From NCBI GenBank assembly GCA_021787535.1, contig JAJYLR010000001.1, positions 19,648 through 83,647 of the forward strand: a stretch of 64,000 nt of DNA, in the 5' to 3' direction. Position 1 is the stretch's first letter, and every line of letters starts with the position of its first letter. Of the stretch, positions 8,708-62,779 are shown one piece after another. The notes under the pieces are model-generated. The model was not told where the DNA came from. It worked only from the letters and a program-made list of their open reading frames with translations, and searched no databases. A program made the position numbers and the translations under genes. This DNA comes from a bacterium. GTDB lineage: Bacteria > Patescibacteriota > CPR2 > UBA1875 > JAJYID01.

Positions 8708-8710
8708 TTC

Positions 8711-8739
8711 TTGACATATACCTCTGGATTTGCTATACT
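8711..8739 (+). promoter_or_regulatory. Consensus sigma70-type promoter: TTGACA, 17-nt spacer, TATACT
   Basis: Exact -35 TTGACA and -10 TATACT with a 17-nt spacer, upstream of the udg gene leader. Confidence 0.6.
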
Positions 8740-8846
8740 TGACCCAACGTTTTGAAGTTCTCGAGCATATAAATGATGAAATTTTGTTCTGCAAATTATA
8801 TTATTTAGGGTTTGATTTATGATTTTTATATAGATTTTGAATCAGT

Positions 8847-8920
8847 TCAGAATGACAGAAAGGGGAGGATTCTGGACCCGCCTGCGTTTCACTACGGAAC
8901 GGACAGGCAAGCCAGAATGC
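8847..8920. repeat. Degenerate copy of the GATTC...GAATGAC palindromic element family in the udg 5' leader
   Basis: cagaatgaca...gattctgg...gcaagccagaatgc has family signature ends but an expanded loop. Confidence 0.45.
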
Positions 8921-8961
8921 CCCAAACACTTAATACTTAAGTAAGGGGCAGGCATAGGACT

Positions 8962-9652: not shown

Positions 9653-9677
9653 GATTCCGGATCAAGTCCGGAATGAC
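9653..9677. repeat. Solo core hairpin of the palindromic element family: gattccgga-tcaag-tccggaatgac
   Basis: Stem 8 bp, CAAG-type loop, GAATGAC terminus. Located in the rnj upstream region. Confidence 0.6.
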
Positions 9678-20246: not shown

Positions 20247-20263
20247 CCTTTTCCTGTCATTCC

Positions 20264-20331
20264 CGCGGAGGCGGGAATCTATATAATAAAAATTCTGGAT
20301 TCCCGCCTCCGCGGGAATGACAATAATGATA
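20264..20331. repeat. Full-length palindromic element, family 2. Its arms are gtcATTCCCGCggagGCGGGAATc and gATTCCCGCctccGCGGGAATgac, and they are exact reverse complements of each other.
   Basis: 68 bp. Each arm is itself a hairpin, so the element can form a cruciform. It abuts the efp start codon. Confidence 0.8.
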
Positions 20332-21136: not shown

Positions 21137-21952
21137 ATGAAAAAGCGAATTGATATTTTATTGGTTGACAAAGGATTTGCTGGAACCAGAACTAAAGCCC
21201 AAGCTATGCTCATGTCGGGCTCTGTATTTATCGGTGGGCAAAGAGTTGACAAAGTCGGGACTTTGGTTGAAGAAACTGCCGAGGTTGAAATTAGAGAAAA
21301 GTTTCCTTACGTCTCTCGCGGGGCGCTAAAAATAGAAAAAGCTTACGAAGAATTTGATTTGAATTTTCAAGATAAGGTTATTTGTGATATAGGTTCGTCA
21401 ACCGGGGGATTTACCGACTTTGCCTTGCAGCACGGGGCTAAGAAGGTTTTTGCCGTCGATGTCGGATACGGCCAGCTGGACCGGAAACTTCGTGAAGATT
21501 CCCGGGTGGTTGTAATGGAGAAGACCAATTTCCGTGACATCGAATCCCGGGACGATTTTTCTAAACGCGTCATTCTGACTTGTCCAGGATCAAAAAATCA
21601 TGTGAAAAATGCAGATTCCGGTCAAGCCAGAATGACGATTGAAAAAATCGATTATTTCGTCTGCGATGTCTCATTTATTTCCTTAAAGAAGATTATTCCG
21701 CAGATTAAAAAAATCGCCGATTATTCCACTGAGTGCATTTTACTCATAAAGCCACAGTTCGAAGTTGGCAAGGAAATCGCCGACAAAACAAAAGGAGTTA
21801 TTAGAGACGAAGAAATCCAAAGAGCGGTTGTTGAGGATATCGCGAAATTTGCGGAGAGTTCAGGATTTAGAGTGCAAGGAATTACAGATTCACCGATAAC
21901 CGGCGCGAAGGGCAATAAGGAATTTTTATTGTGGTTGGCATTTAATCGATAA
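21137..21952 (+). CDS. tlyA: TlyA family rRNA 2'-O-methyltransferase (S4 domain plus FtsJ-like MTase), carrying an in-frame palindromic-element insertion
   Basis: S4 domain N-terminus, SAM motif VICDIGSSTGGFTDFA, and CDVSFISL. A 26-aa inserted segment sits between the SAM fold and DVSFISL. Confidence 0.85.
   Translation: MKKRIDILLVDKGFAGTRTKAQAMLMSGSVFIGGQRVDKVGTLVEETAEVEIREKFPYVSRGALKIEKAYEEFDLNFQDKVICDIGSSTGGFTDFALQHGAKKVFAVDVGYGQLDRKLREDSRVVVMEKTNFRDIESRDDFSKRVILTCPGSKNHVKNADSGQARMTIEKIDYFVCDVSFISLKKIIPQIKKIADYSTECILLIKPQFEVGKEIADKTKGVIRDEEIQRAVVEDIAKFAESSGFRVQGITDSPITGAKGNKEFLLWLAFNR
21568..21637. repeat. Intragenic composite palindromic element (family 1) inserted in-frame in tlyA. It encodes ...[23 protein letters not shown]...
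   Basis: cgtcattctgac...gattccgg-tcaag-ccagaatgacg. Outer 10-nt inverted termini. The 23-nt core matches copies at 26612, 38515 and 23600. Confidence 0.8.
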
Positions 21953-22388: not shown

Positions 22389-22403
22389 AGGTGTTCCTTA
22401 AAC

Positions 22404-22490
22404 ATTAAACTTCAAGACCATGGCGCCGCCGTCTTTCACAACATAATCTTTTCCTTCGAGGCGGACTTTGCCGGCCGCTTTAATGTCTTT
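22404..22490 (-). pseudogene. Duplicated, slightly degenerate copy of the ychF 3' end (last ~29 codons, [30 protein letters not shown])
   Basis: About 75/85 nt identical to 23205-23289 (the true ychF C-terminus). In frame, with its own stop. Confidence 0.75.
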
Positions 22491-22498: not shown

Positions 22499-23089
22499 TT
22501 AATCCTGAGACACTCCAGAGATTTCTTGCGCTTTCTTAATAATAAACCGGAGGAAGGCGATAAAGAGTGCAAAAAGACCGCCTTTTTCTTTGCTTTCTAT
22601 TTGTTTTTTGACTGCCTCGGGGCTGCCGTTTGCCATGAACTGAATAAGTTCGGCCATAGCTTCATTTTGAGCTATTTGGGATTCGATTAATGCGAGAATC
22701 TCTTCACGCTGGTTTGCGGCGATGTTATCAAAATTTTCCTGAAGTTGCGCGTCGATTTTCCCTAGCATTTCGCTAAATCCTTCAGATGTTAATTCTGTAC
22801 TTTCAATTGCTTCCGTGGGCTCATCAGTGTCATCAGTTTCTATTCCCAGCTGCTGACGCAGTTTATTTATTTCGGCTAATTCTTCCGGTGGGGATTCTGC
22901 CTCGGCTCGCTGTTCTTGGTCTGTCTGCCCCTCTTTTGTTGTCTCAGTTAATTCTTCCGGCGAAAGTTCTTGTAAATTATCAGGTTTATCTACTGTACCT
23001 TCGGGGCCTTCCGATACTGTTTCACTTAGTTCTGGTTGAGGTTGTGCCATTTCCCCGGAGTCAGGAAACTGTGGTATTTCTTCATTCAT
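22499..23089 (-). CDS. Hypothetical highly acidic protein (D/E/Q/T-rich N-terminal ~150 aa) with a C-terminal hydrophobic helix
   Basis: Compositional features only. Lies between ychF and the duplicated ychF 3' fragment. Confidence 0.5.
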   Translation of the reverse strand: MNEEIPQFPDSGEMAQPQPELSETVSEGPEGTVDKPDNLQELSPEELTETTKEGQTDQEQRAEAESPPEELAEINKLRQQLGIETDDTDEPTEAIESTELTSEGFSEMLGKIDAQLQENFDNIAANQREEILALIESQIAQNEAMAELIQFMANGSPEAVKKQIESKEKGGLFALFIAFLRFIIKKAQEISGVSQD

Positions 23090-23193: not shown

Positions 23194-24348
23194 TCATACA
23201 TTAAACTTAAAAATCATCACATCGCCGTCTTTCACAACATAATCTTTCCCTTCGAGGCGGACTTTGCCGGCCGCTTTGGCGCCTGACCATCCTTTATTTT
23301 CTACCAAATCTTTCCAATCCACAGTCTCGGCTTTGATGAAGCCCTTTTCAAAATCGGTATGAATGATGCCGGCGGCTTGAGGCGCCTTATCCCCTTTGTG
23401 AATTGTCCATGCTTTAATCTCTTTCTCTCCTGCTGTAAAGTAAGTTTTGAGTCCGAGCAGATCATATCCTTTCTTGATTAACCGATTTAATCCCGTCTCG
23501 GATTGTCCGAGCTCTGCCAAATATTCTTTCTTTTCTTCTTCGGAAAGCTCATTGAGCTCAGACTCGATTTTTGCCGAAATAATAACATAATCTTTCTCCG
23601 TCATTCTGGCTTGACCAGAATCTGTCATTTTTGAATTTTTTTCATTAGGATTTGATTGGAAATTGCCTGCTTGCCTGCGAGGCAGGGAAATTGGAAATTG
23701 AAAATTCTTTGTGAGGTGTTCTTCATCGACATTAAATATGTAAATATGAGGTTTCAAGGTAAGCAAGTTTAGATCCTTAATATGCCCGATTTCTTTTTCT
23801 GTGAGACCCAGTTCGCGAGCAGTTTTTCCTTTCTCGAGTTCGGTCTGAATTTTTTGGACTAAAGCTAAGGTTTCCTTAAGTTTTGGATCACCTTTTATAT
23901 CTTTCGTTAATTTTGCAGTCCTTTTCCCTGCCGTTTCGAGATCGGCCAGGATAAGCTCCATCTTGATGGTCTCCATGTCGGATGTCGGGTTTATTTCTCC
24001 GGTGACGTGGGTAATATTGGCGTCGGTAAATACGCGCACCACCTCGGCGATGGCGTCGCACTGCCGGATATTGGCCAGGAATTTATTGCCGAGCCCTTCC
24101 CCTTCCGCCGCTCCTTTGACTATCCCGGCAATATCTACGAACTCCACGATGGCCGGAACGATTTTTTGGGTCGGAATGACCCCAGCCATTTTCGTGAGCC
24201 GCTCATCCGGCACCTCGACGATTCCAACATTGGGATCAATGGTGCAAAACGGGTAATTCGAAGCTTCAGCTTTATTCTGCGTCAAAGCGTTAAAAAGCGT
24301 GCTTTTGCCAACGTTTGGCAGTCCGACTATTCCGATAGATAAACCCAT
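23194..24348 (-). CDS. ychF: Ribosome-binding ATPase YchF (Obg-family GTPase), carrying an in-frame palindromic-element insertion. The annotated start is the internal [20 protein letters not shown]; the longer ORF to 24534 is probably not translated.
   Basis: G1 [22 protein letters not shown]-terminal TGS domain ...[19 protein letters not shown] ~38-aa insert ([38 protein letters not shown]) precedes the helical domain. Confidence 0.85.
23594..23712. repeat. Intragenic palindromic element (family 1 core plus a second imperfect palindrome) inserted in-frame in ychF
   Basis: gtcattctggcttgaccagaatc is the family-1 core in reverse orientation. It is followed by cctgcttgcctgcgaggcagg, an imperfect palindrome. 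Confidence 0.75.
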
Positions 24349-24409
24349 GAATTCCTTAATTAGTTTACCAATTTTATCATAAATTCTCGTCTTTTTTAAG
24401 CAAAAACCT

Positions 24410-24438
24410 TTGCCAAAGTCATTATGTTGGTATATAAT
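24410..24438 (+). promoter_or_regulatory. Sigma70-type promoter TTGCCA-N17-TATAAT upstream of the 24547 gene. A divergent ychF promoter probably lies in the same intergenic region.
   Basis: Good hexamers with a 17-nt spacer. Confidence 0.5.
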
Positions 24439-24546
24439 GGTTTCGCAAGGATACCTTTTGTAGGCGTTCTTTTTTAACTCAATCTTTCTTTCCATCCTTA
24501 ATTTACGGATGTCAGTTTTGGCAAATGAAACCACTAGGAGTCGAAG

Positions 24547-25395: not shown

Positions 25396-25502
25396 CTCTT
25401 GTCATTCCGAGCGACTCTCCGCACTTAAATTCTTAAGTGCGGGGTAAGCCGAGGAATCTTTTGCCGTGACTGGATTCCCGCCTTCGCGGGAATGACAGCG
25501 TG
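25396..25502. repeat. Composite cluster of palindromic elements: a gtcattccgagcg... arm, an internal ccgcacttaa/ttaagtgcgg hairpin, and a family-2 hairpin gattcccgccttcgcgggaatgac
   Basis: GTCATTC and GAATGAC termini plus an ATTCCCGC-N4-GCGGGAAT hairpin identical in design to 20306-20331. Confidence 0.7.
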
Positions 25503-26404: not shown

Positions 26405-26560
26405 CATAGTTGCGTTTAGCGTTAAAGCGCCAAAGGGCGTAGAGACTAGTCTCTACGCCCTTTAAACTTTTGAGTTCAGCAACTTTGGTCTAATGAGTGA
26501 TTTGTTGCTAATCATTTTAATAAACAAAGAGACCGTCAAAACTAGTTTAATTTGTCATTC

Positions 26561-26634
26561 TGGCGACGACAGGAGGCCAGAATCTCATGGTTTTAAACAC
26601 AATAATTGATTCTGGGCAAGCCAGAATGACATCC
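26561..26634. repeat. Full-length family-1 palindromic element: reverse-orientation core (gtcattctggcgacgacaggaggccagaatc), a 20-nt spacer, then forward core (gattctgggcaagccagaatgac)
   Basis: The forward core is identical 23/23 to the intragenic pilD copy at 38515-38537. Confidence 0.8.
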
Positions 26635-32415: not shown

Positions 32416-32538
32416 AAAACATAATTTTGAATAATAGAATGAAAATAAAGAATGAAGGATCTAAAACTTGAATCTTTATTCCGAATTCTAGATTCCTATT
32501 CTATTATTCAATGATGCGGCTATTCAAAATTTAAAATC

Positions 32539-34323: not shown

Positions 34324-34352
34324 AAATATTAATTTTTAATTATCAAATTCCA

Positions 34353-34742
34353 ATGATCAATCAAATCTCAAGTACCAATAAGGAAGAAACAAAATATGAT
34401 TTAGTTGAGAGGACTGCAGTATTTGGTGAATCTATTCTTGACTTTGTTGGGGGTGTCGAAAGAAATTCTATCAATAACCCATTAATAAGCCAGGTTGTTA
34501 GGTCTGGAACAAGTGTGGGGGCAAATTATTGTGAGGCAAATGAGGCGAATTCCAAAAAGGATTTTGTTCATAAGGTTAGCATCGCAAAAAAAGAAGCAAA
34601 AGAAACTATACACTGGCTCCGCATGATTATAAAAGTAAACTCTGCTCTCAGAGAAAGAGCTGAAATTTTGCAAAAGGAATCTCACGAGCTGGTTTTGATA
34701 TTTTCTGCTATAATGAGAAAAAGTACGGGTAGGGAAGTTTAA
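34353..34742 (+). CDS. Four-helix-bundle protein (23S rRNA intervening-sequence protein family, TIGR02436-like)
   Basis: SGTSVGANYCEANEANSKKDFVHKVSIAKKEAKETIHWL matches the family core motif. Confidence 0.7.
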   Translation: MINQISSTNKEETKYDLVERTAVFGESILDFVGGVERNSINNPLISQVVRSGTSVGANYCEANEANSKKDFVHKVSIAKKEAKETIHWLRMIIKVNSALRERAEILQKESHELVLIFSAIMRKSTGREV

Positions 34743-34860
34743 AATTTATTATTTAGCATTTGATTGAACATTGAGTTTTGAACATTGGAATTTTAATTAT
34801 AAGTCTTTGAATTTTCAACTGATGGTATTAAAATAAGAGTTATAAAGGAGGGCTTTACTA

Positions 34861-37281: not shown

Positions 37282-37358
37282 CGTCATTCTGGCTTGGCCA
37301 GAATCAATGCGGCTTCAATGTAACGGCCCTGACAGATTCTGGATGAACCAGAATGACG
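37282..37358. repeat. Full-length family-1 palindromic element: cgtcattctgg...reverse core...36-nt spacer...forward core gattctgg-atgaa-ccagaatgacg
   Basis: Perfect 11-nt outer inverted termini. Between pilC and the pilin gene. Confidence 0.8.
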
Positions 37359-38175: not shown

Positions 38176-39033
38176 TTGTTATATAATATTTTTATGTATT
38201 TATATGTCATTACTCTCGTTATCTTTATCTTATTAGGCCTTATTACCGGCAGTTTTTTGAATGTTCTCATATACAGATTAGAAAACAAGAAAAGAAAAAC
38301 TCTTTTCGGACGGTCTTTTTGTCCTTCGTGCGGGCAACAAATTGCCTGGTATGACAATATCCCTATTATTTCCTGGCTGGTTTTGGGTGGAAAGTGCAGG
38401 AAATGCGGAAAGCAAATCTCATCTCAGTATCCGCTAGTAGAACTAGCGACAGGTTTTTTGTTTGCAGCGATCGGCCTGAAATTTTTGTTTCTGGGCGCTT
38501 TACACATAGGTATTGATTCTGGGCAAGCCAGAATGACGGCACCGGACATTTTAAATTTATTATTTTGGCTGTTTTTTACGGCGGGGTTGATCGTAATCTT
38601 TGTATATGATTTCAAGCACCAAATCATTCCTAATGAGATAATTTATACTCTTTTGGCAGCCGGGCTAGTATTTGTTGGGGTTGACACGCTATTTTTTGGC
38701 GGCTATCAGTATTTAATTGATCATTTGCTCTCTGGTCTTCTCGCCGGAGGATTTTTCTATGCTCTGGCCGCTGTTTCAAAGGGTAAATGGATGGGAGGAG
38801 GCGACATTAAGCTAGTTGCCTTTATGGGGTTGGTATTAGGTTGGCAGGGTCTGCTTGCAGCTCTTTACTTTTCCTTTGTTTTGGGGGCGGTTTTTGGACT
38901 GAGCGCGCTGGTTGCACACAAAAAAGCTCTCAGTTCGCGCATACCTTTCGGGCCTTTTCTGGTAGCCGGTACGTTCGTCGGCCTTTTTTTCGGCGAGCAA
39001 ATGGTTAGCTTTTATGTTAGAATGTTTTTGTAA
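38176..39033 (+). CDS. pilD: Prepilin peptidase PilD (A24 family) carrying an in-frame 23-nt repeat-core insertion
   Basis: GSFLNVLIYRL, tetracysteine CPSCGQQ...CRKCGK, catalytic Asp regions. The insert encodes [10 protein letters not shown]. Confidence 0.85.
   Translation: MLYNIFMYLYVITLVIFILLGLITGSFLNVLIYRLENKKRKTLFGRSFCPSCGQQIAWYDNIPIISWLVLGGKCRKCGKQISSQYPLVELATGFLFAAIGLKFLFLGALHIGIDSGQARMTAPDILNLLFWLFFTAGLIVIFVYDFKHQIIPNEIIYTLLAAGLVFVGVDTLFFGGYQYLIDHLLSGLLAGGFFYALAAVSKGKWMGGGDIKLVAFMGLVLGWQGLLAALYFSFVLGAVFGLSALVAHKKALSSRIPFGPFLVAGTFVGLFFGEQMVSFYVRMFL
38515..38537. repeat. Solo 23-nt family-1 core hairpin gattctgg-gcaag-ccagaatgac inserted in-frame in pilD
   Basis: Identical 23/23 to intergenic 26612-26634. 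Encodes D-S-G-Q-A-R-M-T. Confidence 0.8.
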
Positions 39034-42360: not shown

Positions 42361-43323
42361 TTATACTTGACCTTGACTATGAAATTTTTGATGGATTTCT
42401 TTAAGCCGCGTGTTTGTTATGTGAGTATAAATCTGTGTAGTAGTGATGGAAGAGTGGCCGAGCATGGCTTGGACGGAACGGATATCGGCGCCGTTGATTA
42501 AAAGATCGGTGGCGAAAGAGTGGCGTAGCATATGGGGTGTCACTTTTTTGGTTATTCCGGCTAAACGGGTATATTTTGAGACAATGCGCTGAATGCTTCT
42601 AGGTGTAAGCCGCATATATTCACCTTCATCCAAGCCGTCTTGCATACCTGAGAAATGAATAAAAAGCGGCGCGGCATTATCGGTTCTTTTGGTTAGATAT
42701 CTTTTGAGTTTTTTAATAGCGCTATCTGAAAGAAAAACTACCCTATCCTTACCGCCTTTGCCGCGAACATTGAACTCTCCTCTTTCCAGATTGACTTGCT
42801 CGCGATTTAAGCCGGCAAGTTCGCTCACTCTGAGTCCCGTGGAAAAAAGTGTCTCCAGAATTGCTGAATCCCTGAGAATAATCACTTCTTTTTTTGAAGG
42901 AAATTTCTCAGGAGTAGCGAGTAAATCTTCAACTTCCTCGATTTCCAAGAATTCTACCTGTTTTCTTTTCATTTCCCCGAGCTCAATCTTTTCAGCAGCC
43001 AGAGATTTAATATCTCTTTTGGCCAAGTATTTTAAAAATGCACGCAGAGCAATGATGTGATATGTTTGAGTGATTTTAGCCAGATTACCGCCAAGATCTG
43101 TACTTAACCGATTTAAATAGAGCCGGTATTTTCTGATAAGATCGCTTGTAATTTGTTCGGGCTTAAGTTCACGGCTGCGCCCCTCTTCGGCAAAGTCAAG
43201 AAAACGCCCCAGATAATGTTCGTAGTTTCTGATGGTGAGTTCAGAGTGGTTTTTCTCTATCTCGCAGTATTCTAAAAAGTCGCGAACCAGGTCATTTACA
43301 GTCATACTTACATTGTACGACAC
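42361..43323 (-). CDS. xerD: Tyrosine site-specific recombinase XerC/XerD family
   Basis: C-terminal catalytic region HMLRHSFATDLLINGADIRSVQAMLGHSSITTTQIYTH with the catalytic Tyr. N-terminal SAM-like domain. Confidence 0.85.
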   Translation of the reverse strand: MSYNVSMTVNDLVRDFLEYCEIEKNHSELTIRNYEHYLGRFLDFAEEGRSRELKPEQITSDLIRKYRLYLNRLSTDLGGNLAKITQTYHIIALRAFLKYLAKRDIKSLAAEKIELGEMKRKQVEFLEIEEVEDLLATPEKFPSKKEVIILRDSAILETLFSTGLRVSELAGLNREQVNLERGEFNVRGKGGKDRVVFLSDSAIKKLKRYLTKRTDNAAPLFIHFSGMQDGLDEGEYMRLTPRSIQRIVSKYTRLAGITKKVTPHMLRHSFATDLLINGADIRSVQAMLGHSSITTTQIYTHITNTRLKEIHQKFHSQGQV

Positions 43324-43335
43324 TTTTTTCGACTT

Positions 43336-43749
43336 GTCATTCCGACCGCCACTATGCTAATGAAAAGTGGAGGAATCCCTTACTCGTAGTATAATCTACT
43401 TATGGCCAAAAATTATATTTTCCATGTTCATATATTAGCTAGTGAGAGTGGTACTCTATACATTGGTGTCACCAATGACCTAGTTAGAAGAATATATCAA
43501 CACAGGAGCGATTTAATAGAAGGATTTAGCAAAAAGTATCAATGCCATAAATTAGTTTATTATGAAGAAACATCAGATGTTGAAAGCGCAATTAAAAGAG
43601 AAAAACAAATTAAAAATTGGAGCAGAAAGAAAAAAGAAGGTTTGATCAAAACCAAAAACCCAACCTGGAGAGATTTATCAGGTGATTTATAAAATATTAA
43701 TACAAAGGGATTCCTCCGCTCTACTTTTACGGAAGTTGGTCGGAATGAC
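43336..43749. mobile_element. Family-3 palindromic element carrying a GIY-YIG nuclease gene in its central loop. Outer arms are gtcattccgacc / ggtcggaatgac; inner arms are ggaggaatccc / gggattcctcc.
   Basis: Both arm pairs are exact reverse complements. An empty counterpart lies at 50893-50980. Confidence 0.75.
43402..43692 (+). CDS. Small stand-alone GIY-YIG nuclease family protein (UPF0213/YhbQ-like)
   Basis: YIFHVHILASESGTLYIGVTNDLVRRIYQHR (GIY...YIG) with conserved Arg and Glu downstream. Confidence 0.8.
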   Translation: MAKNYIFHVHILASESGTLYIGVTNDLVRRIYQHRSDLIEGFSKKYQCHKLVYYEETSDVESAIKREKQIKNWSRKKKEGLIKTKNPTWRDLSGDL

Positions 43750-43761
43750 AAAGAGAGCTGT

Positions 43762-45195
43762 ATGAAAGCGGTTTTTACAAGCGTTATTTTATTAGCCGTT
43801 ATGGCCGGCATATTTCTCGCTCCTTATTTTGACGTTTCTATACTGAGCGTGGTTGCTCTTTTTGGCATTTTCTTTCTCCTTAGCTTGTCAGTCGTTCCTA
43901 AAAAATGGCTCTGGCTTTTCATGATAGTCATTAGTTTTCTCTTTCTCGGTATTTTTCGTTTTATCCAAGTACAAAACGCCATTTACAACCTCTCTTATCC
44001 AACTGATCAGGAGGTAAAGCTCCAAGGCCAGGTTGTTGAACCGCCGGAAGAAACGGATAAATCGGTGAAAGCCGTTTTGAAAGATGAGGCAAGGGGCGGT
44101 AAAATTATTTTGATTTTAAAACCCTTCACTAAGGTGAAATATGGCGACCGGCTGTCAGTGAGCGGCAAAGTTAGCATTCCGGCTCAAGAGTATCAAAATT
44201 CTCTTTTAGTAAAAGGTATTGTTTATGAGATGGCCTTTCCGCAAATAGAGCGGGCCGGACCGGGCAAAATGGATATTTCAATGAAAATTCAAAATGGCCT
44301 TTACTCTCTTAGAAACCGTTTTGAGGAGAGTATAAACAGCATATTTCCCGAACCGGAGGCATCATTTCTGGCCGGATTGCTTTTAGGGGTAAAAAGAAAT
44401 CTTCCTGCCTGGCTTACTCAAGATCTCAAAGCCAGCGGCACTACCCATTTGATTGCCCTTTCAGGGTTTAATATTACTGTCATCATTGAGGCATTAAGGA
44501 TAATCTTTAGGCGGCGCAGCGCCAAACTAAGTTTTTATATCCCATTGCTTGTTATTTTTGCTTTTGTGGTTATGACCGGTTCTTCGTCTTCGGTCGTCAG
44601 AGCCGGCATTATGGGAGCAATGATGCTTCTTACTTATCGGGTAGGACGGCAATCTTCAGCTGTCATGGCAATAGTTATTACGGCAGCTATCATGGTTTTC
44701 GCCAATCCTTTTATTTTGCGTTTTGATGCCGGCTTTCAGCTCTCTTTCGCCGCCTTTATCGGGATCATTTATTTTGCGCCTATGATTAGTATGTTTTTGC
44801 CTCTTAAACATGAGTTTGCAAAAGAAATGCTGGCAATGACCTTAGGCGCGCAGATCATGGCTTATCCTTTAATTCTCTATTATTTTGGCACCTTTTCTAT
44901 AGTCTCATCCGCTGCCAACTTAGTCGTTCTGCCTTTTATTCCATTTGTGATGCTGCTTGGTTTTGTGACGGCAGCTGTAGGAATGGTCTGGCAAGGACTG
45001 GGTTATGCTATGTCATTCACCGCCCTTTTTGCCTTAAAGGCAGTGATCGAAACAATCCATTTCTTTGCCCTTCTCCCTTTATCTTCCATAAGCGGTATCA
45101 GCTTTTCCGCATTCAACGCCACTCTCTATTATATAATAATTTTGGAATTGGTTTTTATCTGCAAGAGGCGTCTTGTAAGGAGGCGTCTTGCCTAA
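43762..45195 (+). CDS. comEC: ComEC/Rec2 DNA internalisation channel, membrane (competence) domain only
   Basis: Multiple TM helices, N-terminal OB-like region, competence motif region ASGTTHLIALSGFNITVI. Confidence 0.8.
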   Translation: MKAVFTSVILLAVMAGIFLAPYFDVSILSVVALFGIFFLLSLSVVPKKWLWLFMIVISFLFLGIFRFIQVQNAIYNLSYPTDQEVKLQGQVVEPPEETDKSVKAVLKDEARGGKIILILKPFTKVKYGDRLSVSGKVSIPAQEYQNSLLVKGIVYEMAFPQIERAGPGKMDISMKIQNGLYSLRNRFEESINSIFPEPEASFLAGLLLGVKRNLPAWLTQDLKASGTTHLIALSGFNITVIIEALRIIFRRRSAKLSFYIPLLVIFAFVVMTGSSSSVVRAGIMGAMMLLTYRVGRQSSAVMAIVITAAIMVFANPFILRFDAGFQLSFAAFIGIIYFAPMISMFLPLKHEFAKEMLAMTLGAQIMAYPLILYYFGTFSIVSSAANLVVLPFIPFVMLLGFVTAAVGMVWQGLGYAMSFTALFALKAVIETIHFFALLPLSSISGISFSAFNATLYYIIILELVFICKRRLVRRRLA

Positions 45196-46063
45196 AGAAA
45201 AAGGGGTAAAAAAGATTTTTCCCTTGTTCGCCCTTCCGATACTTTTGATTGCCTTTTTAGGGATTTGGTATTTTGTCTTTCTTCCGCCCAGCCGAGATTT
45301 AAAGATTATTTTCTGCGATGTCGGGCAAGGCGATGGAGCAATCCTCGAATTTCCGGGTGGCAGAACCGCCCTTGTTGATAGCGGACCAGATAAGAAAATT
45401 CTAGGATGTTTAGGCAAGAATCTGCCTTTTTACAGCAAGAAAATTGATCTTGTCTTTTTATCTCATGCGGACGCCGATCATGTAGGCGGTTTAAATTATG
45501 TTTTAAAACGTTATCAGGTGGGGCAAATCGTAGGAAGTGGCATTGGCAAAGATACTAAGGCGTATCAGTCTTTTTCCGACATTGTTAAGGAGCAGAAAAT
45601 ACCGGAAATCATAGCTCTCCAAGGAACGGAGTTTGACATTGCGCCTATGGCAAAAGTAAGGGTGTTATTACCCGGTAGCACATTAAATAACACAAGTTTA
45701 AATAACGCGTCTGAAATTCTGCAGGTGAGTTTCGGCAGAGAAAATATTCTCTTGACCGGCGATATGGAAAAGGAAGAAGCTGGCCTTTTTGCCAAGCTCT
45801 ATCCGGATCTTCATGCGGATATTATCAAAGTACCGCATCATGGCTCAAAATATTCTCTTGACGCAAATTTTTACAGCCGTCTTCATCCAAAATATGCGGT
45901 GATTTCAGTCGGCGCAAAAAACAGATACGGCCAGCCGCACAAACAAGTGCTGGATTTTTTAAAATCTAAAGCCATAAAGGTTTTCAGGACTGATAAGCAA
46001 GGGGATGTGCAGTTTGAAACAAACGGCACAGAGCTTGGCCAAGCGAACCCGGCTAGTTTGTAA
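45188..46063 (+). CDS. Metallo-beta-lactamase fold hydrolase corresponding to the ComEC C-terminal domain, encoded as a separate ORF with an 8-nt overlap and its own TM anchor
   Basis: HADADHVGG (HxHxDH), VPHHGS. Confidence 0.75.
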   Translation: MPKEKGVKKIFPLFALPILLIAFLGIWYFVFLPPSRDLKIIFCDVGQGDGAILEFPGGRTALVDSGPDKKILGCLGKNLPFYSKKIDLVFLSHADADHVGGLNYVLKRYQVGQIVGSGIGKDTKAYQSFSDIVKEQKIPEIIALQGTEFDIAPMAKVRVLLPGSTLNNTSLNNASEILQVSFGRENILLTGDMEKEEAGLFAKLYPDLHADIIKVPHHGSKYSLDANFYSRLHPKYAVISVGAKNRYGQPHKQVLDFLKSKAIKVFRTDKQGDVQFETNGTELGQANPASL

Positions 46064-48462: not shown

Positions 48463-48679
48463 TCCTGCCATTCGAGCAATTCGCACTAGTGGGCCGAGAC
48501 ATCTTTTTGCTAAAATGCCTAATAACCAATTTCTAATTTCTAATCAAATTTCAATTAAAGAATTAAAAAATTAGAGCATTCAATAGGAATTAGATATTGT
48601 GAATTAGAAATTAAAACCCCAAGAAACCCCTATGATTTCCACTTTGCGGGGCGATCGGGATAACAAACGGAGAGATTGA

Positions 48680-50892: not shown

Positions 50893-50980
50893 GTCATCCC
50901 GAGCGTTAGTCGAGGGATCTCTTATTTATCTCAGAAAGGGATTTCTCCGCTCGTCGATTCTCGAAGTCGGTCGAAATGAC
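50893..50980. repeat. Empty family-3 palindromic element: gtcatcccgagcg...cgagggatctc, a 16-nt central loop, gggatttctcc...ggtcgaaatgac. Same architecture as the GIY-YIG-bearing element at 43336-43749.
   Basis: Outer and inner arms correspond to those flanking the GIY-YIG gene. Between ruvA and ruvB. Confidence 0.7.
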
Positions 50981-54534: not shown

Positions 54535-54990
54535 ATGAAAATAATAACAAGAAGCTCAGAAGAAACAGTTGACCTAGGAGAAAAATTAGGTAAATCCCTG
54601 AAAGGCGGAGAAGTTCTTGCCCTTTACGGTGACCTTGGCGGCGGTAAAACCCAGTTTACAAAAGGTATAGCCAAAGGACTTGGCATTAAAGATAATATTC
54701 TCTCGCCCACTTTCACCATTCGCCGTGAGTATAAAGGCAAGAAGTTAAATCTTCTGCATTATGATTTCTACCGATTTGAATTGCCGGACCGGGAGCTTAT
54801 TGAAAGCATGGAAGAAGGCATTAATCCTGACAATGTGACGGTGATAGAATGGGCGGAAAGGGTTGAGAAACATTTGCCCAATGATGCAGTTAAAATCAAT
54901 TTCAAATACATTTCGGAAAACGAGAGGGAAATAGAAGTTATGCCCGGCAGCCGGAATTTAGAAAATAAGTTTAGTAAGCTGTCATTCTGA
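54535..54990 (+). CDS. tsaE: tRNA threonylcarbamoyladenosine biosynthesis protein TsaE (YjeE)
   Basis: P-loop LALYGDLGGGKTQFTKGIAKGLG, SPTFTI, HYDFYRFE motifs. Confidence 0.85.
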   Translation: MKIITRSSEETVDLGEKLGKSLKGGEVLALYGDLGGGKTQFTKGIAKGLGIKDNILSPTFTIRREYKGKKLNLLHYDFYRFELPDRELIESMEEGINPDNVTVIEWAERVEKHLPNDAVKINFKYISENEREIEVMPGSRNLENKFSKLSF

Positions 54991-55010
54991 GGAACGAAGA
55001 ATCTCATGAG
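54981..55010 (+). repeat. 30-nt repeat gtcattctgaggaacgaagaatctcatgag, left copy. It supplies the ATG of the GIY-YIG gene.
   Basis: Identical to 55347-55376. Hairpin ATTCT-gaggaacga-AGAAT with GTCATTC-family ends. Confidence 0.8.
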
Positions 55011-55329
55011 TTATTATGTCTATATCTTAACAAATAGAATAAACAAAGTTCTTTATACCGGTATGACCAATAATTTAGAAAGAAGGATTTTCGAGCACAA
55101 AAATAAATTGGTTAAAGGGTTTACTGAGAAGTATAATTTGAATAAATTGGTATATTTTGAAGAATTTCCGGCGGCAAAAGAAGCGATCGAAAATGAGAAG
55201 AGAATTAAGGGCTGGGTAAGAAGAAAAAAGATTGCATTGATTGAGGCGAAAAATAAGAATTGGATTGATTTATCGAAAGAAAATAGATCCTTTGTCGTTC
55301 CTCCTCAGGATGACAATAACCAAGGATGA
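55006..55329 (+). CDS. Small stand-alone GIY-YIG nuclease family protein (UPF0213/YhbQ-like) inserted between tsaE and tsaB
   Basis: YYVYILTNRINKVLYTGMTNNLERRIFEHK. Confidence 0.8.
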   Translation: MSYYVYILTNRINKVLYTGMTNNLERRIFEHKNKLVKGFTEKYNLNKLVYFEEFPAAKEAIENEKRIKGWVRRKKIALIEAKNKNWIDLSKENRSFVVPPQDDNNQG

Positions 55330-55346
55330 AATATAACTCGACAACA

Positions 55347-55376
55347 GTCATTCTGAGGAACGAAGAATCTCATGAG
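55347..55376 (+). repeat. 30-nt repeat gtcattctgaggaacgaagaatctcatgag, right copy (direct). It supplies the ATG of tsaB.
   Basis: Exact direct repeat of 54981-55010. Confidence 0.8.
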
Positions 55377-55830
55377 AATAATTATGAAAAACACATTAGT
55401 AATAGACACTTCAGATAAGGTTGCCAGGTTTGGTTTGTTTCAGGACGACAAACTGGTTGATACTTTAGAATGGGAGGCGCATCGGGAGCTTTCCAAAACC
55501 TTTTATGCCAAATTGGATGAGTTACTTGAGCGAAATAAACTGAGCTACCAGGATTTGGATTCAATTATTGTGGTTTGCGGCCCCGGATCATTTACCGGTC
55601 TTCGTATCGGAACTGTAATCGTAAATGCATTTGCCTATGCTTTGGAAATCGAAACGGCTGGTGTGATTCAGCCTCCTTGTCATTCCGGACTAGATCCGGA
55701 ATCTAAACCCCTCAAAAAACTAACATTAGAAGAAATTTATAACGCCGGAAAAAAAGACCTGAAAAAGGGCCGGACTCTCGAGCCATTTTATGGCCGCGAA
55801 CCAAATATAACAGCCAAGAAGAAAAAATGA
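55372..55830 (+). CDS. tsaB: tRNA threonylcarbamoyladenosine biosynthesis protein TsaB (YeaZ), short form (152 aa)
   Basis: LVIDTS...VARFGLF, VVCGPGSFTGLRIGTVIVNAFAYA are typical of the TsaB N-terminal domain. Confidence 0.75.
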   Translation: MRIIMKNTLVIDTSDKVARFGLFQDDKLVDTLEWEAHRELSKTFYAKLDELLERNKLSYQDLDSIIVVCGPGSFTGLRIGTVIVNAFAYALEIETAGVIQPPCHSGLDPESKPLKKLTLEEIYNAGKKDLKKGRTLEPFYGREPNITAKKKK

Positions 55831-55954
55831 TTTTTCTTCTTGGAATTTTCAATTTCTAATTCACAATTTTTAATCAAAAGAATTTACAAATTTCAAAAAT
55901 TTATTTATAATCAAAGGTCTTGGAGAGTTCCTAAAAATATTTAGCCAAAGGAGA

Positions 55955-56320: not shown

Positions 56321-56654
56321 CTAGTACATAACCGGCTAAATAACGGGGACCTTCGGGTCCCCGTTTAAATATTGGACAATTTCTGTCTTGAAAAATGGGT
56401 AAAATGGGAGTATAGTAAAGTCAGTAAATTAAAAAATTAAATTTACCATTAATAACTAAAATTAATAAGGCATATGGGCGGAAGAGGATTTTAAACTGAA
56501 AACGAACTAGGGTTTTTTAGTTGTTTATTGGTACTCAAAAAAATTGTCATTTCACTTGTCATGCAGGTAGGATAATCCTTAAGTTTTGAATTTAGAACAT
56601 TCGGATTTAGACATTGTTTAGAATTTCGAATTTAGTGCTTCGAACTTAAGCTAA

Positions 56655-56697
56655 GGGATTCCTCCGCTCGCTTTTCATAGAGTTGGTCGGAATGACA
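56655..56697. repeat. Solo right half of a family-3 palindromic element (gggattcctcc...ggtcggaatgac) upstream of rny
   Basis: Matches the right arm of the GIY-YIG element at 43707-43749. Confidence 0.65.
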
Positions 56698-58246: not shown

Positions 58247-58427
58247 AAACTGGAATCTAGTATTTTGAATTTTGAAGATAGAATGGGAATTATGAATGAT
58301 GAATATTTGGCCAACGAAGAACTTTGTAAATATCTGAATTCTTAATTCTATATTTTCATTCTAAATTCTAAATACCAAATTCAAAATTCTTCCATCTAGA
58401 AAGTAATTGTTTTTTTAAGGAACATTT

Positions 58428-59811: not shown

Positions 59812-59888
59812 CGGGGTGTGGCGCAGTTGGCTAGCGCGCCTGCTTTGGGAGCAGGAGGCCGGAGGTTCGAGTCCTCTCACCCCGACCA
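59812..59888 (+). tRNA. tRNA-Pro (anticodon UGG)
   Basis: Folded by hand. C1:G72 acceptor cggggtg/caccccg, D-arm gcgc/gcgc, anticodon stem cctgc/gcagg with loop tttggga, T-arm ggagg-ttcgagt-cctct, discriminator A73, encoded CCA. Confidence 0.8.
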
Positions 59889-61409
59889 GATGAGACATTT
59901 TGAAAATTCAGGGGCGTTTTGTTGTACGCTCGCCCAACCTTCAGTAGTATTCGTTTCGCAAAAAGCCCTATATTTCGGAATTAAATCAAAGGGGCGGACA
60001 AATTCAAATTCAGCTTTTTGGGCAAGCAAACGGCGGTTCGTTCCAATTTTTTCCACCAATGACTTTATTTCATAAAAATCATCGGACAAAGCAAGTTTTT
60101 CGGCGCGGTGAGCGGTTTTTATCCATTCCCGCAAAGGTTCGATCCAACTGTTTCCCTTTCGCCCAAAATCAGACTCTCTTTTGCTAAGGTCTGTTTTTAT
60201 TTTTATAAGTTCATCTTTTTTTAAAAGATAAGTTTCTTTTTCAATACTTCCGTCTAAAAAAGCATTGACCAGTTTATCAAGTTTCGTTTCCGTCTCCTTG
60301 ATTTTCTTCTTGAAGCTTTGGGCGAAAGATTGCGCCGACCGGGCGTTGTCTTTTTCCCACACGTCAACTTGAGCGTTCATTTTTTCGGCCCAGCCGCCGC
60401 AAATAGCGATATTTTGAAGCCGTGATTTCAATTGATCAGCGAGTAAGTCCTCGCGTACATATCCTTGGCTGCATTTGCCGCGCTTTTTGGTACAGCGGTA
60501 ATAACGGTAAGTGCCGCCGTGTCCATGGGCAAACTGGGCGGTAATAGCGCCGCCGCACTCGCTGCAAGTTAAAAGCCCGACAAACGGGAAGTTATGCTTC
60601 CTTTTGCTTTTTCGAGGTCTTGCTCGCTGTTTTAGAACTTTTTGGACGGCTTCAAAAACGCTTAAGGAAACAATTGCCGGAAAACCGCCTTCATAGGTTT
60701 CACCATTGTGTACAATCAAACCGAGATAAACTTTGTTGGTGAGCATTCTCTGTAGCTTTGCCTTGCAAAATGGTTTTCCGGTTCTTCCAACCACGCCCCA
60801 AAAACTCAGGCGCCGGCCCAAACTTTCCAAAGTGTGTTGGCCATGGGCAAATTCCTCAAACGTTTTAACTACAAGTCTTGATTTTACAGGATCGGGTTCA
60901 ATATTTCTCGTTTTCGGATTATTCACATAGCCGAAAGGCGCAAGTGTCGGCCATTCGCCGCGCCTGATTTTTTGTCTGATCCCGCGCTTTACGTTCTCCG
61001 ACAAATTGTCGGAATAATACTTTGATTGGCCAAAGGCGACTTGAAGCATAAAGAGCCCTTGCGGAGTCGGCTCAAACCAAAAAGTGGGAAAGTTTAAAGA
61101 AACGATCTTGCCGATGTCAATACAATAAATTATTTGTCCGCCATCAACGGAATTTCTGGCCAAACGATCAGGGTGCCAAGCAATCAAGCCGATCGGTTCT
61201 TTGCTCTCGTGGACTTTGCCCATCATTTCATTAAAAACCTTCCGGCCCGGTTTCTTGGCGCTTTTAGATTCAATAAAGGTTTCCGCAATCTCTATATTTT
61301 CCCGTTTGGCAAATTCCGCCAACTCCGTAAGCTGCGCTTCAATAGACATCACTTGTCTTTCTTCATCTTCGGTGGATTTACGGGCGTAGAGAAAAAATCT
61401 TGTTTTCAT
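59877..61409 (-). CDS. Large serine recombinase (resolvase/invertase catalytic domain, recombinase domain, zinc-ribbon/coiled-coil), integrase-type
   Basis: N-terminus YARKSTEDEERQVMSIEAQ (catalytic Ser region). DRLARN. Recombinase domain. C-terminal Cys cluster CSECGG...C..C. Confidence 0.85.
   Translation of the reverse strand: MKTRFFLYARKSTEDEERQVMSIEAQLTELAEFAKRENIEIAETFIESKSAKKPGRKVFNEMMGKVHESKEPIGLIAWHPDRLARNSVDGGQIIYCIDIGKIVSLNFPTFWFEPTPQGLFMLQVAFGQSKYYSDNLSENVKRGIRQKIRRGEWPTLAPFGYVNNPKTRNIEPDPVKSRLVVKTFEEFAHGQHTLESLGRRLSFWGVVGRTGKPFCKAKLQRMLTNKVYLGLIVHNGETYEGGFPAIVSLSVFEAVQKVLKQRARPRKSKRKHNFPFVGLLTCSECGGAITAQFAHGHGGTYRYYRCTKKRGKCSQGYVREDLLADQLKSRLQNIAICGGWAEKMNAQVDVWEKDNARSAQSFAQSFKKKIKETETKLDKLVNAFLDGSIEKETYLLKKDELIKIKTDLSKRESDFGRKGNSWIEPLREWIKTAHRAEKLALSDDFYEIKSLVEKIGTNRRLLAQKAEFEFVRPFDLIPKYRAFCETNTTEGWASVQQNAPEFSKCLIWSG
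59884..60040. repeat. Left 157-bp inverted repeat (IR-L). It starts at the last 5 nt of tRNA-Pro and covers the 3' end (C-terminal ~50 codons) of the serine recombinase gene.
   Basis: Reverse complement matches 61544-61700 (first ~90 nt identical, ~92% overall). Confidence 0.85.
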
Positions 61410-61543
61410 AATGTTTCCTCCTTAATTTATATGTCTCCTTTGGCCTAAAAGCGTGGGATTAAAACTTGCTTTGTATTTTTGCTTTTGGCAAAAACGGAAA
61501 AAATCGGATACAAATTTCATTTGTGAATTTGCTTCGCAACTTT

Positions 61544-61700
61544 CGAACCGCCGTTTGCTTTCCCGAAAAGCCGAGTTTGAATTTGTCCGCCCCTTTGATT
61601 TAATTCCTAAATACAGGGTTTTTTGCGAAACGAATACTACTGAAGGTTGGGCGAGCGTACAACAAAACGCCCCTGAATTTTCAAAATGTCTCATCTGGTC
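61544..61700. repeat. Right 157-bp inverted repeat (IR-R), an inverted copy of the recombinase 3' end. It ends with gtctcatctggtc, which mirrors the tRNA-Pro junction.
   Basis: Seen directly. ORFs 59818-60075 and 61422-61694 translate to the same peptide on opposite strands. Confidence 0.85.
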
Positions 61701-61756
61701 GCAATTGCTGAACGTTGCTCGAACCCATTTCGAACAGGGAGAGGAATACTAGGGGC

Positions 61757-61782
61757 GATTTTTACAAGGATTTGTAAAAATC
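61757..61782. promoter_or_regulatory. Perfect palindrome gatttttacaa-ggat-ttgtaaaaatc, 57 nt beyond IR-R. Candidate recombinase binding or crossover site.
   Basis: 11-bp perfect arms around a 4-nt centre. Confidence 0.35.
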
Positions 61783-62055
61783 TGTGGCGGAAATTCGGGT
61801 CGGGGCGAATTTCCGCGGGGCTTTCGGACTTTCTTAAATCTCGGACCGCCTCAAGCATGAACTTTCGCCTGTTTCCCCAGCTTAACTGGTTCGGGTTTTT
61901 GCGGCGAAGATCGGGCGGCAAGGAAAGAAAGGGAACTTTTTCGCTTGCCCCGCCCAGCCCGGCGCGCTCCAGGGTTAAAGGGGCTCCCTTGTTTTTCTTC
62001 TAAGATAACTATAGTATGTAGAACTAAAGTTAGCAAGTAGTTTATTATATCCAGT

Positions 62056-62265
62056 ATGAAATCAAATGTTTTAATCAAATTCGGTAACAGGGTTCGGGAG
62101 GAAAGGGCCAAACAAGGATTATCTCAAGAAGCTTTGGCTGATAAGGCAGAAGTGCATAGAACTTACATTGGGATGATTGAAAGAGCTGAAAAGAATGTGA
62201 CTTTGATAACTATTGAGAGGTTAGCTAAAGCGCTTGGTGTTAAACCTGAAGATTTGGTTAGGTGA
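62056..62265 (+). CDS. XRE-family helix-turn-helix transcriptional regulator (Cro/CI-like)
   Basis: LSQEALADKAEVHRTYIGMIERAEKNVTLITIERLAKALGV is a canonical HTH_XRE sequence. Confidence 0.85.
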   Translation: MKSNVLIKFGNRVREERAKQGLSQEALADKAEVHRTYIGMIERAEKNVTLITIERLAKALGVKPEDLVR

Positions 62266-62278
62266 GGTTGAAAAAGAT

Positions 62279-62779
62279 ATGATATTTTCTGATATTAAAA
62301 TTGAAATCTCTGCTAATACTGTAGCTTGGTATGGAGCAATAGTCTCCTCTCTAGCATTTTTTATAGCTTTTCTAACATATAAGAGAGACCGAGCAAAAAT
62401 TGTGGTGGAATGGCAAAAAGATATGTTTTTTTATGATGATAGCATAAATCCTGGTGAACCATATCTTTTAATCAAAGTTATTAATAAAGGACGCCGTTCG
62501 GTTAGAATACAACAAGTGGGATTTTCTAATTTGTACAAAAGGGGAGGAGGAATTCTTAACCCTTATTATATTTCCCTGCCTAGTACAGTTAGTGAAGGTG
62601 AGAGTTTATCTCTTACGTGGAAACAGAAAAATATTTTTAATAAACCAATCTCATCATTTAATGTTTACGACGCAACAGGGAAAGTTTATAAGGCGAGAGT
62701 TGTCTCTCTTCCGGAATATTTGTTCGACAAAATTGTAAAATTTTTCCTAAAGTTAAAAAATCATAAAAAGAAGTCCTGA
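62279..62779 (+). CDS. Hypothetical membrane-anchored protein (start at MIFSDIKIEI after the HTH gene stop)
   Basis: One TM then a beta-rich domain. No family. Confidence 0.4.
   Translation: MIFSDIKIEISANTVAWYGAIVSSLAFFIAFLTYKRDRAKIVVEWQKDMFFYDDSINPGEPYLLIKVINKGRRSVRIQQVGFSNLYKRGGGILNPYYISLPSTVSEGESLSLTWKQKNIFNKPISSFNVYDATGKVYKARVVSLPEYLFDKIVKFFLKLKNHKKKS

Follow-up and report, generated by a model that had tools for sequence, protein, structure and literature searches.

(C/T)GTC-tagged hairpin repeats as probable cis sites of Ssn-type GIY-YIG endonucleases in a small candidate-phyla-type genome

What are the short palindromes that recur at gene boundaries and inside genes of a small, gene-dense bacterial genome, and which enzyme could recognize them? 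The question is raised by an intergenic element at positions 26554-26630 of a 64,000-nt stretch of contig JAJYLR010000001.1 (hereafter the window, representing the 64 kb examined of a 636-kb genome; all unit coordinates are window positions), in which two hairpins, each carrying a short unpaired tag on its outer side, form an inverted pair. The initial annotation had described a dispersed superfamily of palindromic elements resembling repetitive extragenic palindromes (REPs), with several subfamilies and at least 14 copies. The results described below bear out that description and lead to a more specific reading, to which we assign a high probability: the elements are (C/T)GTC-tagged REP-type hairpin repeats that serve as cis sites of Ssn, a single-domain GIY-YIG endonuclease of about 95 aa.

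Each unit is composed of an unpaired YGTC tag, a stem that starts directly after the tag with an A·T and then a T·A pair (usually reading ATTC), a short loop, a second arm ending in ..GAAT, and an unpaired C. The base preceding the invariant GTC is C in 6, T in 15, and A in 1 of 22 units (a pyrimidine in 21/22), and the first two stem pairs are A·T and T·A in all correctly framed units, as tabulated by script from the outside in; in a MAFFT alignment, gap placement shifted pairs between the subfamilies. The stem is evidently upheld by compensating changes, because T·A (11 units) and C·G (10 units) replace each other at stem position 5 over all units, as do G·C (11 units) and C·G (3 units) at position 6. 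Two structural classes can be distinguished. Class-A units have 7-8 perfect pairs of three stem types (ATTCTGG, ATTCCGGA, and ATTCCCGC) with a loop of 3-5 nt (11 nt in one case), and fold well as DNA, with z about -3.7. Class-B units have only 5 Watson-Crick pairs, followed by a tandem of G·A/A·G and then by G·C or C·G, with a loop or insert of 3-38 nt; their stems occur in five compensated versions (ATTCT/AGAAT, ATTCC/GGAAT, ATCCC/GGGAT, ATCCT/AGGAT, and ATTTC/GAAAT).

The abundance of the units is far above that in shuffled sequences. The window contains 25 copies of the heptamer GAATGAC/GTCATTC, as compared with 7.0 ± 3.1 expected from dinucleotide-preserving shuffles, and a structural scan (GTCAT, at least 5 Watson-Crick pairs directly after GTC, and a closing C) yielded 22 units versus 1.23 ± 0.97 (maximum 4) in 100 dinucleotide shuffles, an 18-fold excess. 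Four of the 25 GAATGAC matches (1124, 45012, 53911, and 59047) look like chance matches, and two weak hairpins found by the scan (14943 and 29162) are probably due to chance as well; the imperfect units at 8833, 21569, and 21614 lie outside the 22 scan matches, yet are clear members. In total, 14 loci hold about 23 units that are well formed (YGTC-AT(T/C)C..stem-loop-stem..G(A/G)AT-C), i.e., about one unit per 3 kb. Seven of the 14 loci are inverted pairs, all seven with the GTC tags pointing outward (HH), separated by spacers of 14-29 nt, or of 331 nt in the cassette of the nuclease gene ssn1 described below. The perfect 10-11-nt termini ascribed earlier to full-length members were seen again. 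The coordinates first proposed for 37282-37358, 21568-21637, 43336-43749, 50893-50980, 56655-56697, 54981, and 55347 hold to within 1-2 nt, whereas 26561-26634 has to be moved to 26554-26630, 20264-20331 to 20256-20321, and 25476-25499 to 25473-25496. The loci and the two nuclease genes are as follows, SRM denoting the Ssn-related motif explained further below.

26554-26630: focal element, HH dimer of two class-A units with a 23-nt spacer, intergenic between a 244-aa open reading frame (ORF) and a SurA-like gene
26554-26584, + strand: left unit of the focal element, 8-bp stem, 11-nt loop
26608-26630, - strand: right unit of the focal element, 7-bp stem, loop CTTGC
8833-8921, - strand: two tandem units between a metallophosphoesterase gene and udg
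9653-9677, - strand: single class-A unit GTCATTCCGGACTTGATCCGGAATC between udg and the RNase J gene
20256-20321: HH homodimer of NTS-type units (GTCATTCCCGCGGAGGCGGGAATC twice), 18-nt spacer, between rpsR and efp
21569-21636: HH dimer within tlyA (21137-21952), in-frame, residues 145-167
23600-23622, + strand: single class-A unit within ychF (23194-24495, - strand), read as DSGQARMT
25401-25496: HH heterodimer of a left class-B unit (25401-25458, with a 38-nt inner hairpin) and a right canonical NTS unit (25473-25496, TGTCATTCCCGCGAAGGCGGGAATCCAG)
37283-37357: HH dimer of class-A units, 29-nt spacer, between pilC and a prepilin gene
38515-38537, - strand: single class-A unit within the prepilin peptidase gene pilD (38194-39033), read as DSGQARMT, residues 108-115
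43336-43749, + strand: SRM-ssn1-SRM cassette between an XerC/D-like recombinase gene and comEC
43402-43692, + strand: ssn1, 96 aa, single-domain GIY-YIG protein (PF01541 at residues 10-78, E 1.4e-15)
50893-50980: HH heterodimer of class-B units (50893-50919, + strand; 50940-50980, - strand) between ruvA and ruvB
54981-55369, + strand: ssn2 locus between tsaE and tsaB
55006-55329, + strand: ssn2, 107 aa, single-domain GIY-YIG protein (PF01541 at residues 3-75, E 2e-17)
55679-55703, + strand: single class-A unit within tsaB (55372-55830), read as CHSGLDPES, residues 103-111
56657-56696, - strand: solo long class-B unit, 5 nt upstream of rny (RNase Y)

The focal element reads GTCATTCTGGC..GCCAGAATC, a 23-nt spacer, and GATTCTGG..CCAGAATGAC, and its folding as single-stranded DNA is predicted at -16.8 kcal/mol (z = -5.0). 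The dimer at 20256-20321, with 25-nt perfectly complementary arms, is stronger still (-32 kcal/mol, z -11). Of the tandem units next to udg, 8833-8856 has one stem mismatch and 8867-8921 is degenerate, with a GGC tag and a long loop. The right unit between ruvA and ruvB (50940-50980) carries ATTTC/GAAAT, a compensated variant of ATTCC/GGAAT.

Two of the loci had been regarded as plain repeats, namely the 'long element' at 43336-43749 and the pair at 54981/55347, but both enclose GIY-YIG genes. The ssn1 cassette ends in long class-B units with their tags outward (43336-43377, + strand; 43709-43749, - strand), the right one of which is nearly identical to the solo unit upstream of rny. On the left of ssn2 stands a class-B unit (54981-55003, + strand), and on its right an inverted variant (55286-55314, - strand) inside the 3' end of the gene, followed by a direct copy (55347-55369, + strand); a 30-mer, GTCATTCTGAGGAACGAAGAATCTCATGAG, is perfectly repeated in direct orientation at 54981 and 55347, bracketing the gene. 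The arrangement around either nuclease gene, with the tags pointing outward, is thus that of the pairs without a gene. At the gene ends, the stop codon of tsaE is the TGA within GTCATTCTGA, and the ATG of ssn2 (55006) lies 2 nt beyond the hairpin but within the 30-nt repeat. The elements had further been credited with supplying the start codons of efp and tsaB. For efp this does not hold, since its ATG is at 20331, 10 nt past the element end at 20321; for tsaB, the first ATG (55372) is likewise 2 nt beyond the hairpin, yet falls within the 30-nt perfect direct repeat.

A Pfam scan detected no domain besides GIY-YIG in Ssn1 or Ssn2, whose sizes agree with those of single-domain GIY-YIG proteins (about 94 aa, 150 aa or less); an NCBIfam search returned no informative family for either protein, and their only sequence relative in the PDB is the UPF0213 protein BH0048 (1ZG2, E 1.5e-6). 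For comparison with SsnA of Neisseria, we used a 94-aa N. gonorrhoeae protein from NZ_CP119140.1, found by tblastn with Ssn2 in PLSDB. It is taken as the SsnA ortholog because of its size, its residues Y6, Y17, and E64, and its surroundings, with nine matches to the canonical NTS pattern within 3.3 kb. (NZ_CP119140.1 and NZ_CP119142.1 are 2.17-Mb N. gonorrhoeae chromosomes filed as plasmids in PLSDB, a labelling error.) By BLASTP, Ssn1 is 57% identical to this ortholog (E 3e-34, residues 5-93) and Ssn2 43% identical (E 3e-26, residues 1-89), both with about 95% coverage. For membership in the Ssn family (cd10448), a BLASTP match to SsnA of Neisseria is demanded that has E < 1e-10 and covers 75% or more of the query (PMC11893778); with the gonococcal ortholog as reference, Ssn1 and Ssn2 lie well within both thresholds and thus belong to the family by this operational definition. 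Furthermore, Ssn2 has Y6, Y17, and E64 at positions identical to those of the residues mutated in N. meningitidis SsnA.

The system to which these genes and repeats correspond has been described from two sides. The NTS repeat of Neisseria, CGTCATTCCCGCGMAVGCGGGAATCYRG, which contains dRS3, is the target of SsnA, a 94-aa GIY-YIG protein that binds the hairpin only as single-stranded DNA and cuts one strand a few nt upstream, being inactive on duplex DNA and RNA (Chenal et al., Nat Commun 2025, PMC11893778). In the same work, ssnA homologs were found across many phyla, flanked by SRMs; the NTS-ssnA-NTS architecture was likened to insertion sequences and to systems of REPs and REP-associated tyrosine transposases (REP/RAYT); and SsnA was found to lower the transformation of N. 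meningitidis by NTS-bearing DNA (PMC11893778). Earlier, a superfamily of CGTC-tagged REPs had been defined by Di Nocera, De Gregorio and Rocco (BMC Genomics 2013, PMC3733652), with the terminal tag CGTC (often TGTC, or CCTC), a stem of 8-9 bp starting with A·T and T·A pairs, loops of 4-5 nt, and a tail starting with C. Its dimers are mostly of the HH type, with tags outside; several families coexist per genome, and in-frame intragenic copies occur; its members include Neisseria dRS3 and Rickettsia conorii RPE-4/RPE-6; and 'no dedicated transposase' was found, no tyrosine transposase gene being flanked by these repeats in any species (PMC3733652). The class-A units of the window match this description closely, with stems of 7-8 bp and loops of 3-5 nt, or of 11 nt in one unit. 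Judged by their sequence, the window elements are thus best placed in the published CGTC-REP/NTS/SRM class, not in an unknown class, because two Ssn-type GIY-YIG genes are flanked by the units.

Copies are also found in other genomes. The exact class-A unit GTCATTCTGG-N5-CCAGAATC is present in at least 119 stretches of a species-representative genome collection, its hosts, among the matches listed, being Acidobacteriaceae, Nitrospirota, Rhodanobacteraceae and other Gammaproteobacteria, Nitrospinota, Bacteroidetes, Ignavibacteriaceae, and many candidate phyla. An Ssn-like ORF is present in 3 of the 119 listed stretches, and the unit abuts the ORF in all three; in one of them, the relative L073 (84% nucleotide identity over udg), class-A units stand on both sides of an ssn gene. 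Class-B units occur at the ends of ssn2-like genes in three further stretches (L123, L125, and L127), on both sides in L123 and L125. The ssn2-like protein family is very large, with 13,631 cluster representatives at E <= 1e-3. In a metagenome sample of 80 loci with ssn2-like genes, 75-78 of them assessable, a generic scan for tagged hairpins found one upstream in forward orientation at 53/77 loci, downstream in inverted orientation at 45/78, on both sides at 37/75, and on at least one side at 59/75. Nearly all of these units are of class B, such as GTCATYCTGAGCGNAGCGAAGRATC and GTCATTGCGAGG..CGAAGCAATC. There are hints that Ssn proteins reading IKDMNRxDKL go with class-A units and those reading IKGWVRRKK with class-B units.

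Several observations weigh against the assignment of the window units as cis sites of Ssn. The published SRM pattern, HGTCWYN(0-2)YYVSBRHN(0-5)WNVSBRGN(0-2)RNCYNB, fits only one of the approximately 23 window units (25470-25497, - strand; 0.12 expected), which equals the canonical NTS at 27/28 positions; the remaining units deviate from SRM in the inner pattern, while agreeing with it in the tag, in the A·T/T·A pairs that open the stem, and in the final C. Within 500 nt of the ssn2-like genes, the pattern was likewise found at 0/80 metagenome loci, whereas the gonococcal control gave 9 matches in 3.3 kb. We conclude that the class is right, but that the pattern as published is drawn too narrowly for this genome. 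Secondly, the class-B units flanking both ssn genes fold weakly or not at all under nearest-neighbor DNA parameters (z = 0 for 54981-55003). Thirdly, no ssn gene in the window is flanked by the most abundant class-A subtype; in other genomes, however, this commonest subtype has its own ssn genes, as class-A units abut ssn in L073 and in two other stretches. Fourthly, in Ssn1 the catalytic Tyr of the GIY motif (SsnA Tyr6) is replaced by His10, the protein reading F-H-V-H-I-L where the family has Y-Y-V-Y-I-L; among 270 homologs, Tyr is found in 255 and His in none of the 258 aligned at this position. Y20 and E67 of Ssn1 are conserved. Since the Y6A mutation abolishes cleavage and keeps binding in N. 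meningitidis SsnA (PMC11893778), the His10 substitution suggests that Ssn1 may be cleavage-defective, either a binding-only or a decaying copy. A fifth point concerns the chemistry of movement. GIY-YIG enzymes, Ssn included, are hydrolases, and we know of no strand-transfer step in their reactions.

That units were inserted into existing sequences can be seen from conserved genes. As the initial annotation had noted, elements lie inside genes; four conserved genes carry them in-frame, tlyA with a whole pair and ychF, pilD, and tsaB with single units. In the left unit of tlyA, changes remove the TGA of the consensus loop. Compared with solved homologs, YchF shows an alignment break against H. 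influenzae YchF (1JAL) at query residues 214-254 versus 216-234, an insertion of about 22 aa, and TlyA a break against 3HP7 at 139-175 versus 146-156. Because these breaks interrupt otherwise conserved proteins, the tlyA and ychF segments are true insertions, and the units therefore did move. In ychF, the insertion exceeds the unit: the 22 residues upstream of DSGQARMT are encoded by DNA (23640-23700, - strand) with a small palindrome, CCTGCCTCGCAGGCAAGCAGG, and a degenerate GTCATTTTTGAAT motif, and this extra stretch may be a remnant of a second unit or of another repeat family.

Of the TlyA homologs, those of the closest clade (65-73% identity) have the pair at the same site, and those of the next (64-70%) do not have it. 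In other lineages, units have given rise to other insertions, either at a second site (..CHSRPP..VIPAEAGI.. and ..SFPRRRES..) or as C-terminal tails (CHSELDSES and CHSGLDPES). Insertion thus took place repeatedly, and the tlyA event in the lineage of the window is old, as the dimer is common to a clade with only 65-73% protein identity. For younger changes, one short contig of the relative L001 (83-91% nucleotide identity) and L073 overlap the window, giving two informative sites. In L001, one extra inverted unit, a 58-nt indel, stands between the left unit and ssn2; in L073, the spacer corresponding to 8708-8961 (254 nt with two units) is about 60 nt long, and both units are absent there. Two other assemblies covering this region are 100% identical to the window and hence uninformative. 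The comparison of insertion sites proposed earlier has accordingly yielded presence/absence differences at two sites, while the suggestion of an active or recently active mobilization is not borne out, as the copies are diverged, the tlyA dimer is old, and the recent changes (the L001 indel and the L073 spacer) are few; nothing points to bursts in recent times.

By analogy to the Neisseria and Wolbachia homologs (PMC11893778), it is most likely that the tagged strand would fold into a hairpin when the DNA is single-stranded, i.e., during replication or repair or as incoming transforming DNA, and that Ssn would then bind the stem and the following C and cut a few nt 5' of the tag, on that strand only, leaving duplex DNA and RNA untouched. 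In a tags-outward pair or in an SRM-ssn-SRM cassette, the nicks would then fall immediately beyond either end, one on each strand. More speculatively, these nicks, together with host repair or copying, might spread the units and the cassette, and the solo pairs might be gene-less derivatives that rely on ssn genes at other loci of the genome. Ssn may also limit the recombination of single-stranded DNA entering the cell, as it does in N. meningitidis; genes for a type IV pilus and comEC are present in the window. The ssn1 cassette, between the XerC/D-like tyrosine recombinase gene and comEC (region 42361-46063), lies 13 nt from the ATG of comEC, and in L127 (a Patescibacteria contig of GCA_004297215.1, 3001-6297) an ssn homolog lies 1.6 kb upstream of comEC, which is suggestive in the light of the part that SsnA plays in transformation. 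A general link between ssn and comEC was considered and rejected, a ComEC homolog being present at 0/80 further ssn loci (553 kb).

Other explanations have been weighed against this assignment. Least improbable among them, though still to be given little credence, is that the units act at the RNA level as terminators, attenuators, or mRNA stabilizers and are repeated by usefulness and not by mobility. Most copies are indeed intergenic and near gene ends, many REPs are transcribed according to a suggestion of Di Nocera et al. (PMC3733652), and three units fit a loose terminator pattern. These three matches are antisense to the local genes or inside ORFs, however, and in the sequence scan of 19.5-39.4 kb, terminator-like sites were not enriched (22 versus 17.6 ± 4.5), so that the terminator or attenuator role considered initially gains nothing from it. 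Moreover, the units have no T-tracts, occur in both orientations, and are translated within four genes; an Rfam gathering scan of the whole window gave two tRNAs only and no family at any unit; and N. meningitidis SsnA is inactive on RNA, as mentioned above (PMC11893778).

Movement by a RAYT, i.e., by a domesticated Y1 tyrosine transposase of the IS200/IS605 type encoded elsewhere in the genome and acting on REP doublets (REPINs), is very improbable. The pairs do share the REPIN geometry of two inverted hairpins with a short spacer and outward tags, and the 64 kb examined are only part of the 636-kb genome; but the tag is YGTC and not GTAG, the 2013 survey speaks against a tyrosine transposase at CGTC repeats (PMC3733652), Pfam scans revealed no Y1 transposase domain in the window ORFs or in the gene calls of L002, and the genes that are bracketed by units encode GIY-YIG proteins.

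Scarcely more can be said for classical miniature inverted-repeat transposable elements (MITEs), which are insertion sequences that have lost internal parts but kept their terminal inverted repeats, are mobilized by a transposase in trans, and leave target-site duplications. The inverted termini of the pairs (10-25 nt) and the 30-nt perfect direct repeat bracketing ssn2 would suit such elements. That repeat, however, is composed of a unit plus 7 nt and is not a duplicated target. No direct repeats are visible just outside the termini of the seven pairs, nor any target-site duplications at unit or pair ends, and a MITE could hardly be as small as the many copies that consist of a single unit of 23-25 nt. 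No transposase with matching ends was found in the window; of recombinases, it encodes only the Xer-like integrase and a serine recombinase whose 158-nt inverted repeats are unrelated, and the ends of neither match. The MITE label of the initial annotation is therefore dropped. Finally, that the units are chance palindromes or an artefact of codon or oligonucleotide bias is practically precluded in spite of the few chance-like heptamers and weak hairpins listed above, and is already refuted by the heptamer excess, the 18-fold structural excess, and the matching units in many genomes, where they flank ssn genes.

Some features of the window lie apart from the hairpin repeats. A tRNA-Pro gene (59812-59888) is followed by the gene for a 510-aa large serine recombinase (59877-61409, - strand; Resolvase, Recombinase, and Zn_ribbon_recom domains), which is bracketed by 158-nt inverted repeats, 96% complementary (59883-60040 and 61544-61701); the G+C content drops to 0.33 at 62-64 kb, where unannotated ORFs and an ORF for a TnsA-like endonuclease (63549-63971, - strand) are found. 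The region 59812-64000, which has no relation to the hairpin repeats, thus resembles a mobile element that has integrated at a tRNA gene, or else an invertible segment there. Imperfect inverted repeats of 36 nt (34331-34366 and 34758-34793) also flank a 129-aa ORF between pilB and pilT (34353-34742), which belongs to the '23S rRNA intervening sequence protein' family (PF05635) and is another small bracketed gene inside an operon. An 80-nt copy, 90% identical, of the ychF 3' end lies 796 nt downstream of the real end (22402-22481 and 23198-23277), with a 196-aa ORF without family match (22499-23089, - strand) between the two copies; it may be the footprint of an insertion or duplication. A separate dispersed motif consists of A-T-rich short intergenic repeats, GAATTTAGAA and TTCTAAATTC, at 56560-56650, 58253-58388, 32423-32456, 48589-48616, and 55847-55874, including inverted-repeat pairs.

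The kind of system is thus already known; less ordinary are its candidate-phyla-type host, the high proportion of copies that lie in-frame within genes, the class-B units, and the Tyr-to-His replacement in Ssn1. With the assignment to Ssn, a published nuclease-repeat system (Ssn/SRM and CGTC REPs) is placed in a gene-dense candidate-phyla-type genome of about 0.64 Mb, and such genomes tolerate hairpins within the essential genes tlyA, ychF, pilD, and tsaB. The published motif definition covers a narrow slice of the repeats that flank Ssn genes, which matters for programmable single-strand DNA cutters and for annotation, as the units produce spurious peptides, altered gene ends, and assembly or indel variation. 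A bolder and decidedly more doubtful extension may be put forward tentatively: the class-B units (YGTC-AT(T/C)C(T/C)-GA-G/C ... G/C-GA/AG-(A/G)G(A/G)AT-C, with a 5-bp stem, tandem G·A, and 3-38-nt inserts) might be the cognate sites of a very large Ssn branch, missed by the SRM pattern at all 80 metagenome loci and by the 2013 filter because of more than one mismatch; units of both classes might still be spreading in candidate-phyla genomes, including in-frame in essential genes; and Ssn1 might be a binding-only protein.

The window system is worth comparing with its published relatives. With NTS/SRM-Ssn it shares the same unit plan (H-GTC-AT.. stem-loop ..AT-C), the SRM-ssn-SRM architecture, and single GIY-YIG domain proteins. 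It differs in the units beside the ssn genes, where a 5-bp stem is followed by tandem G·A/A·G and by an insert that varies from 3 to 38 nt, in that about one-fourth of the loci are inside genes as compared with 2% reported for N. meningitidis (PMC11893778), in the absence of the catalytic Tyr from Ssn1, and in the host, which appears to be a candidate-phyla genome of about 0.64 Mb, a group unmentioned in PMC11893778. This placement of the host follows from the names attached to the best database hits (Patescibacteria, Berkelbacteria, WS5, and CPR2). The likeness to the CGTC REPs extends from the CGTC/TGTC tag, the A·T + T·A start, and the C tail to HH homo- and heterodimers, several families per genome, and in-frame copies. 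However, the class-A stems are of 7-8 rather than 8-9 bp, the class-B units would fail the 2013 filter (more than one mismatch, unusual loops), and the 2013 study found no associated enzyme and did not have candidate phyla among its five host phyla. REPIN-RAYT systems resemble that of the window in having a tagged hairpin read as single-stranded DNA by a small nuclease whose gene is bracketed by hairpins, and intergenic gene-less inverted doublets; in clear contrast, they combine a GTAG tag with an HUH/Y1 transposase acting through a covalent intermediate, instead of YGTC with a hydrolytic GIY-YIG nuclease. Finally, the Rickettsia palindromic elements (Ogata et al. 2000, as cited in PMC3733652) belong to another host lineage, RPE-1 and similar elements being longer (about 100-150 bp) and only RPE-4/-6 being CGTC units, but like the window units they stand in-frame in conserved genes of a small genome, where they add short stretches of peptide in loops.

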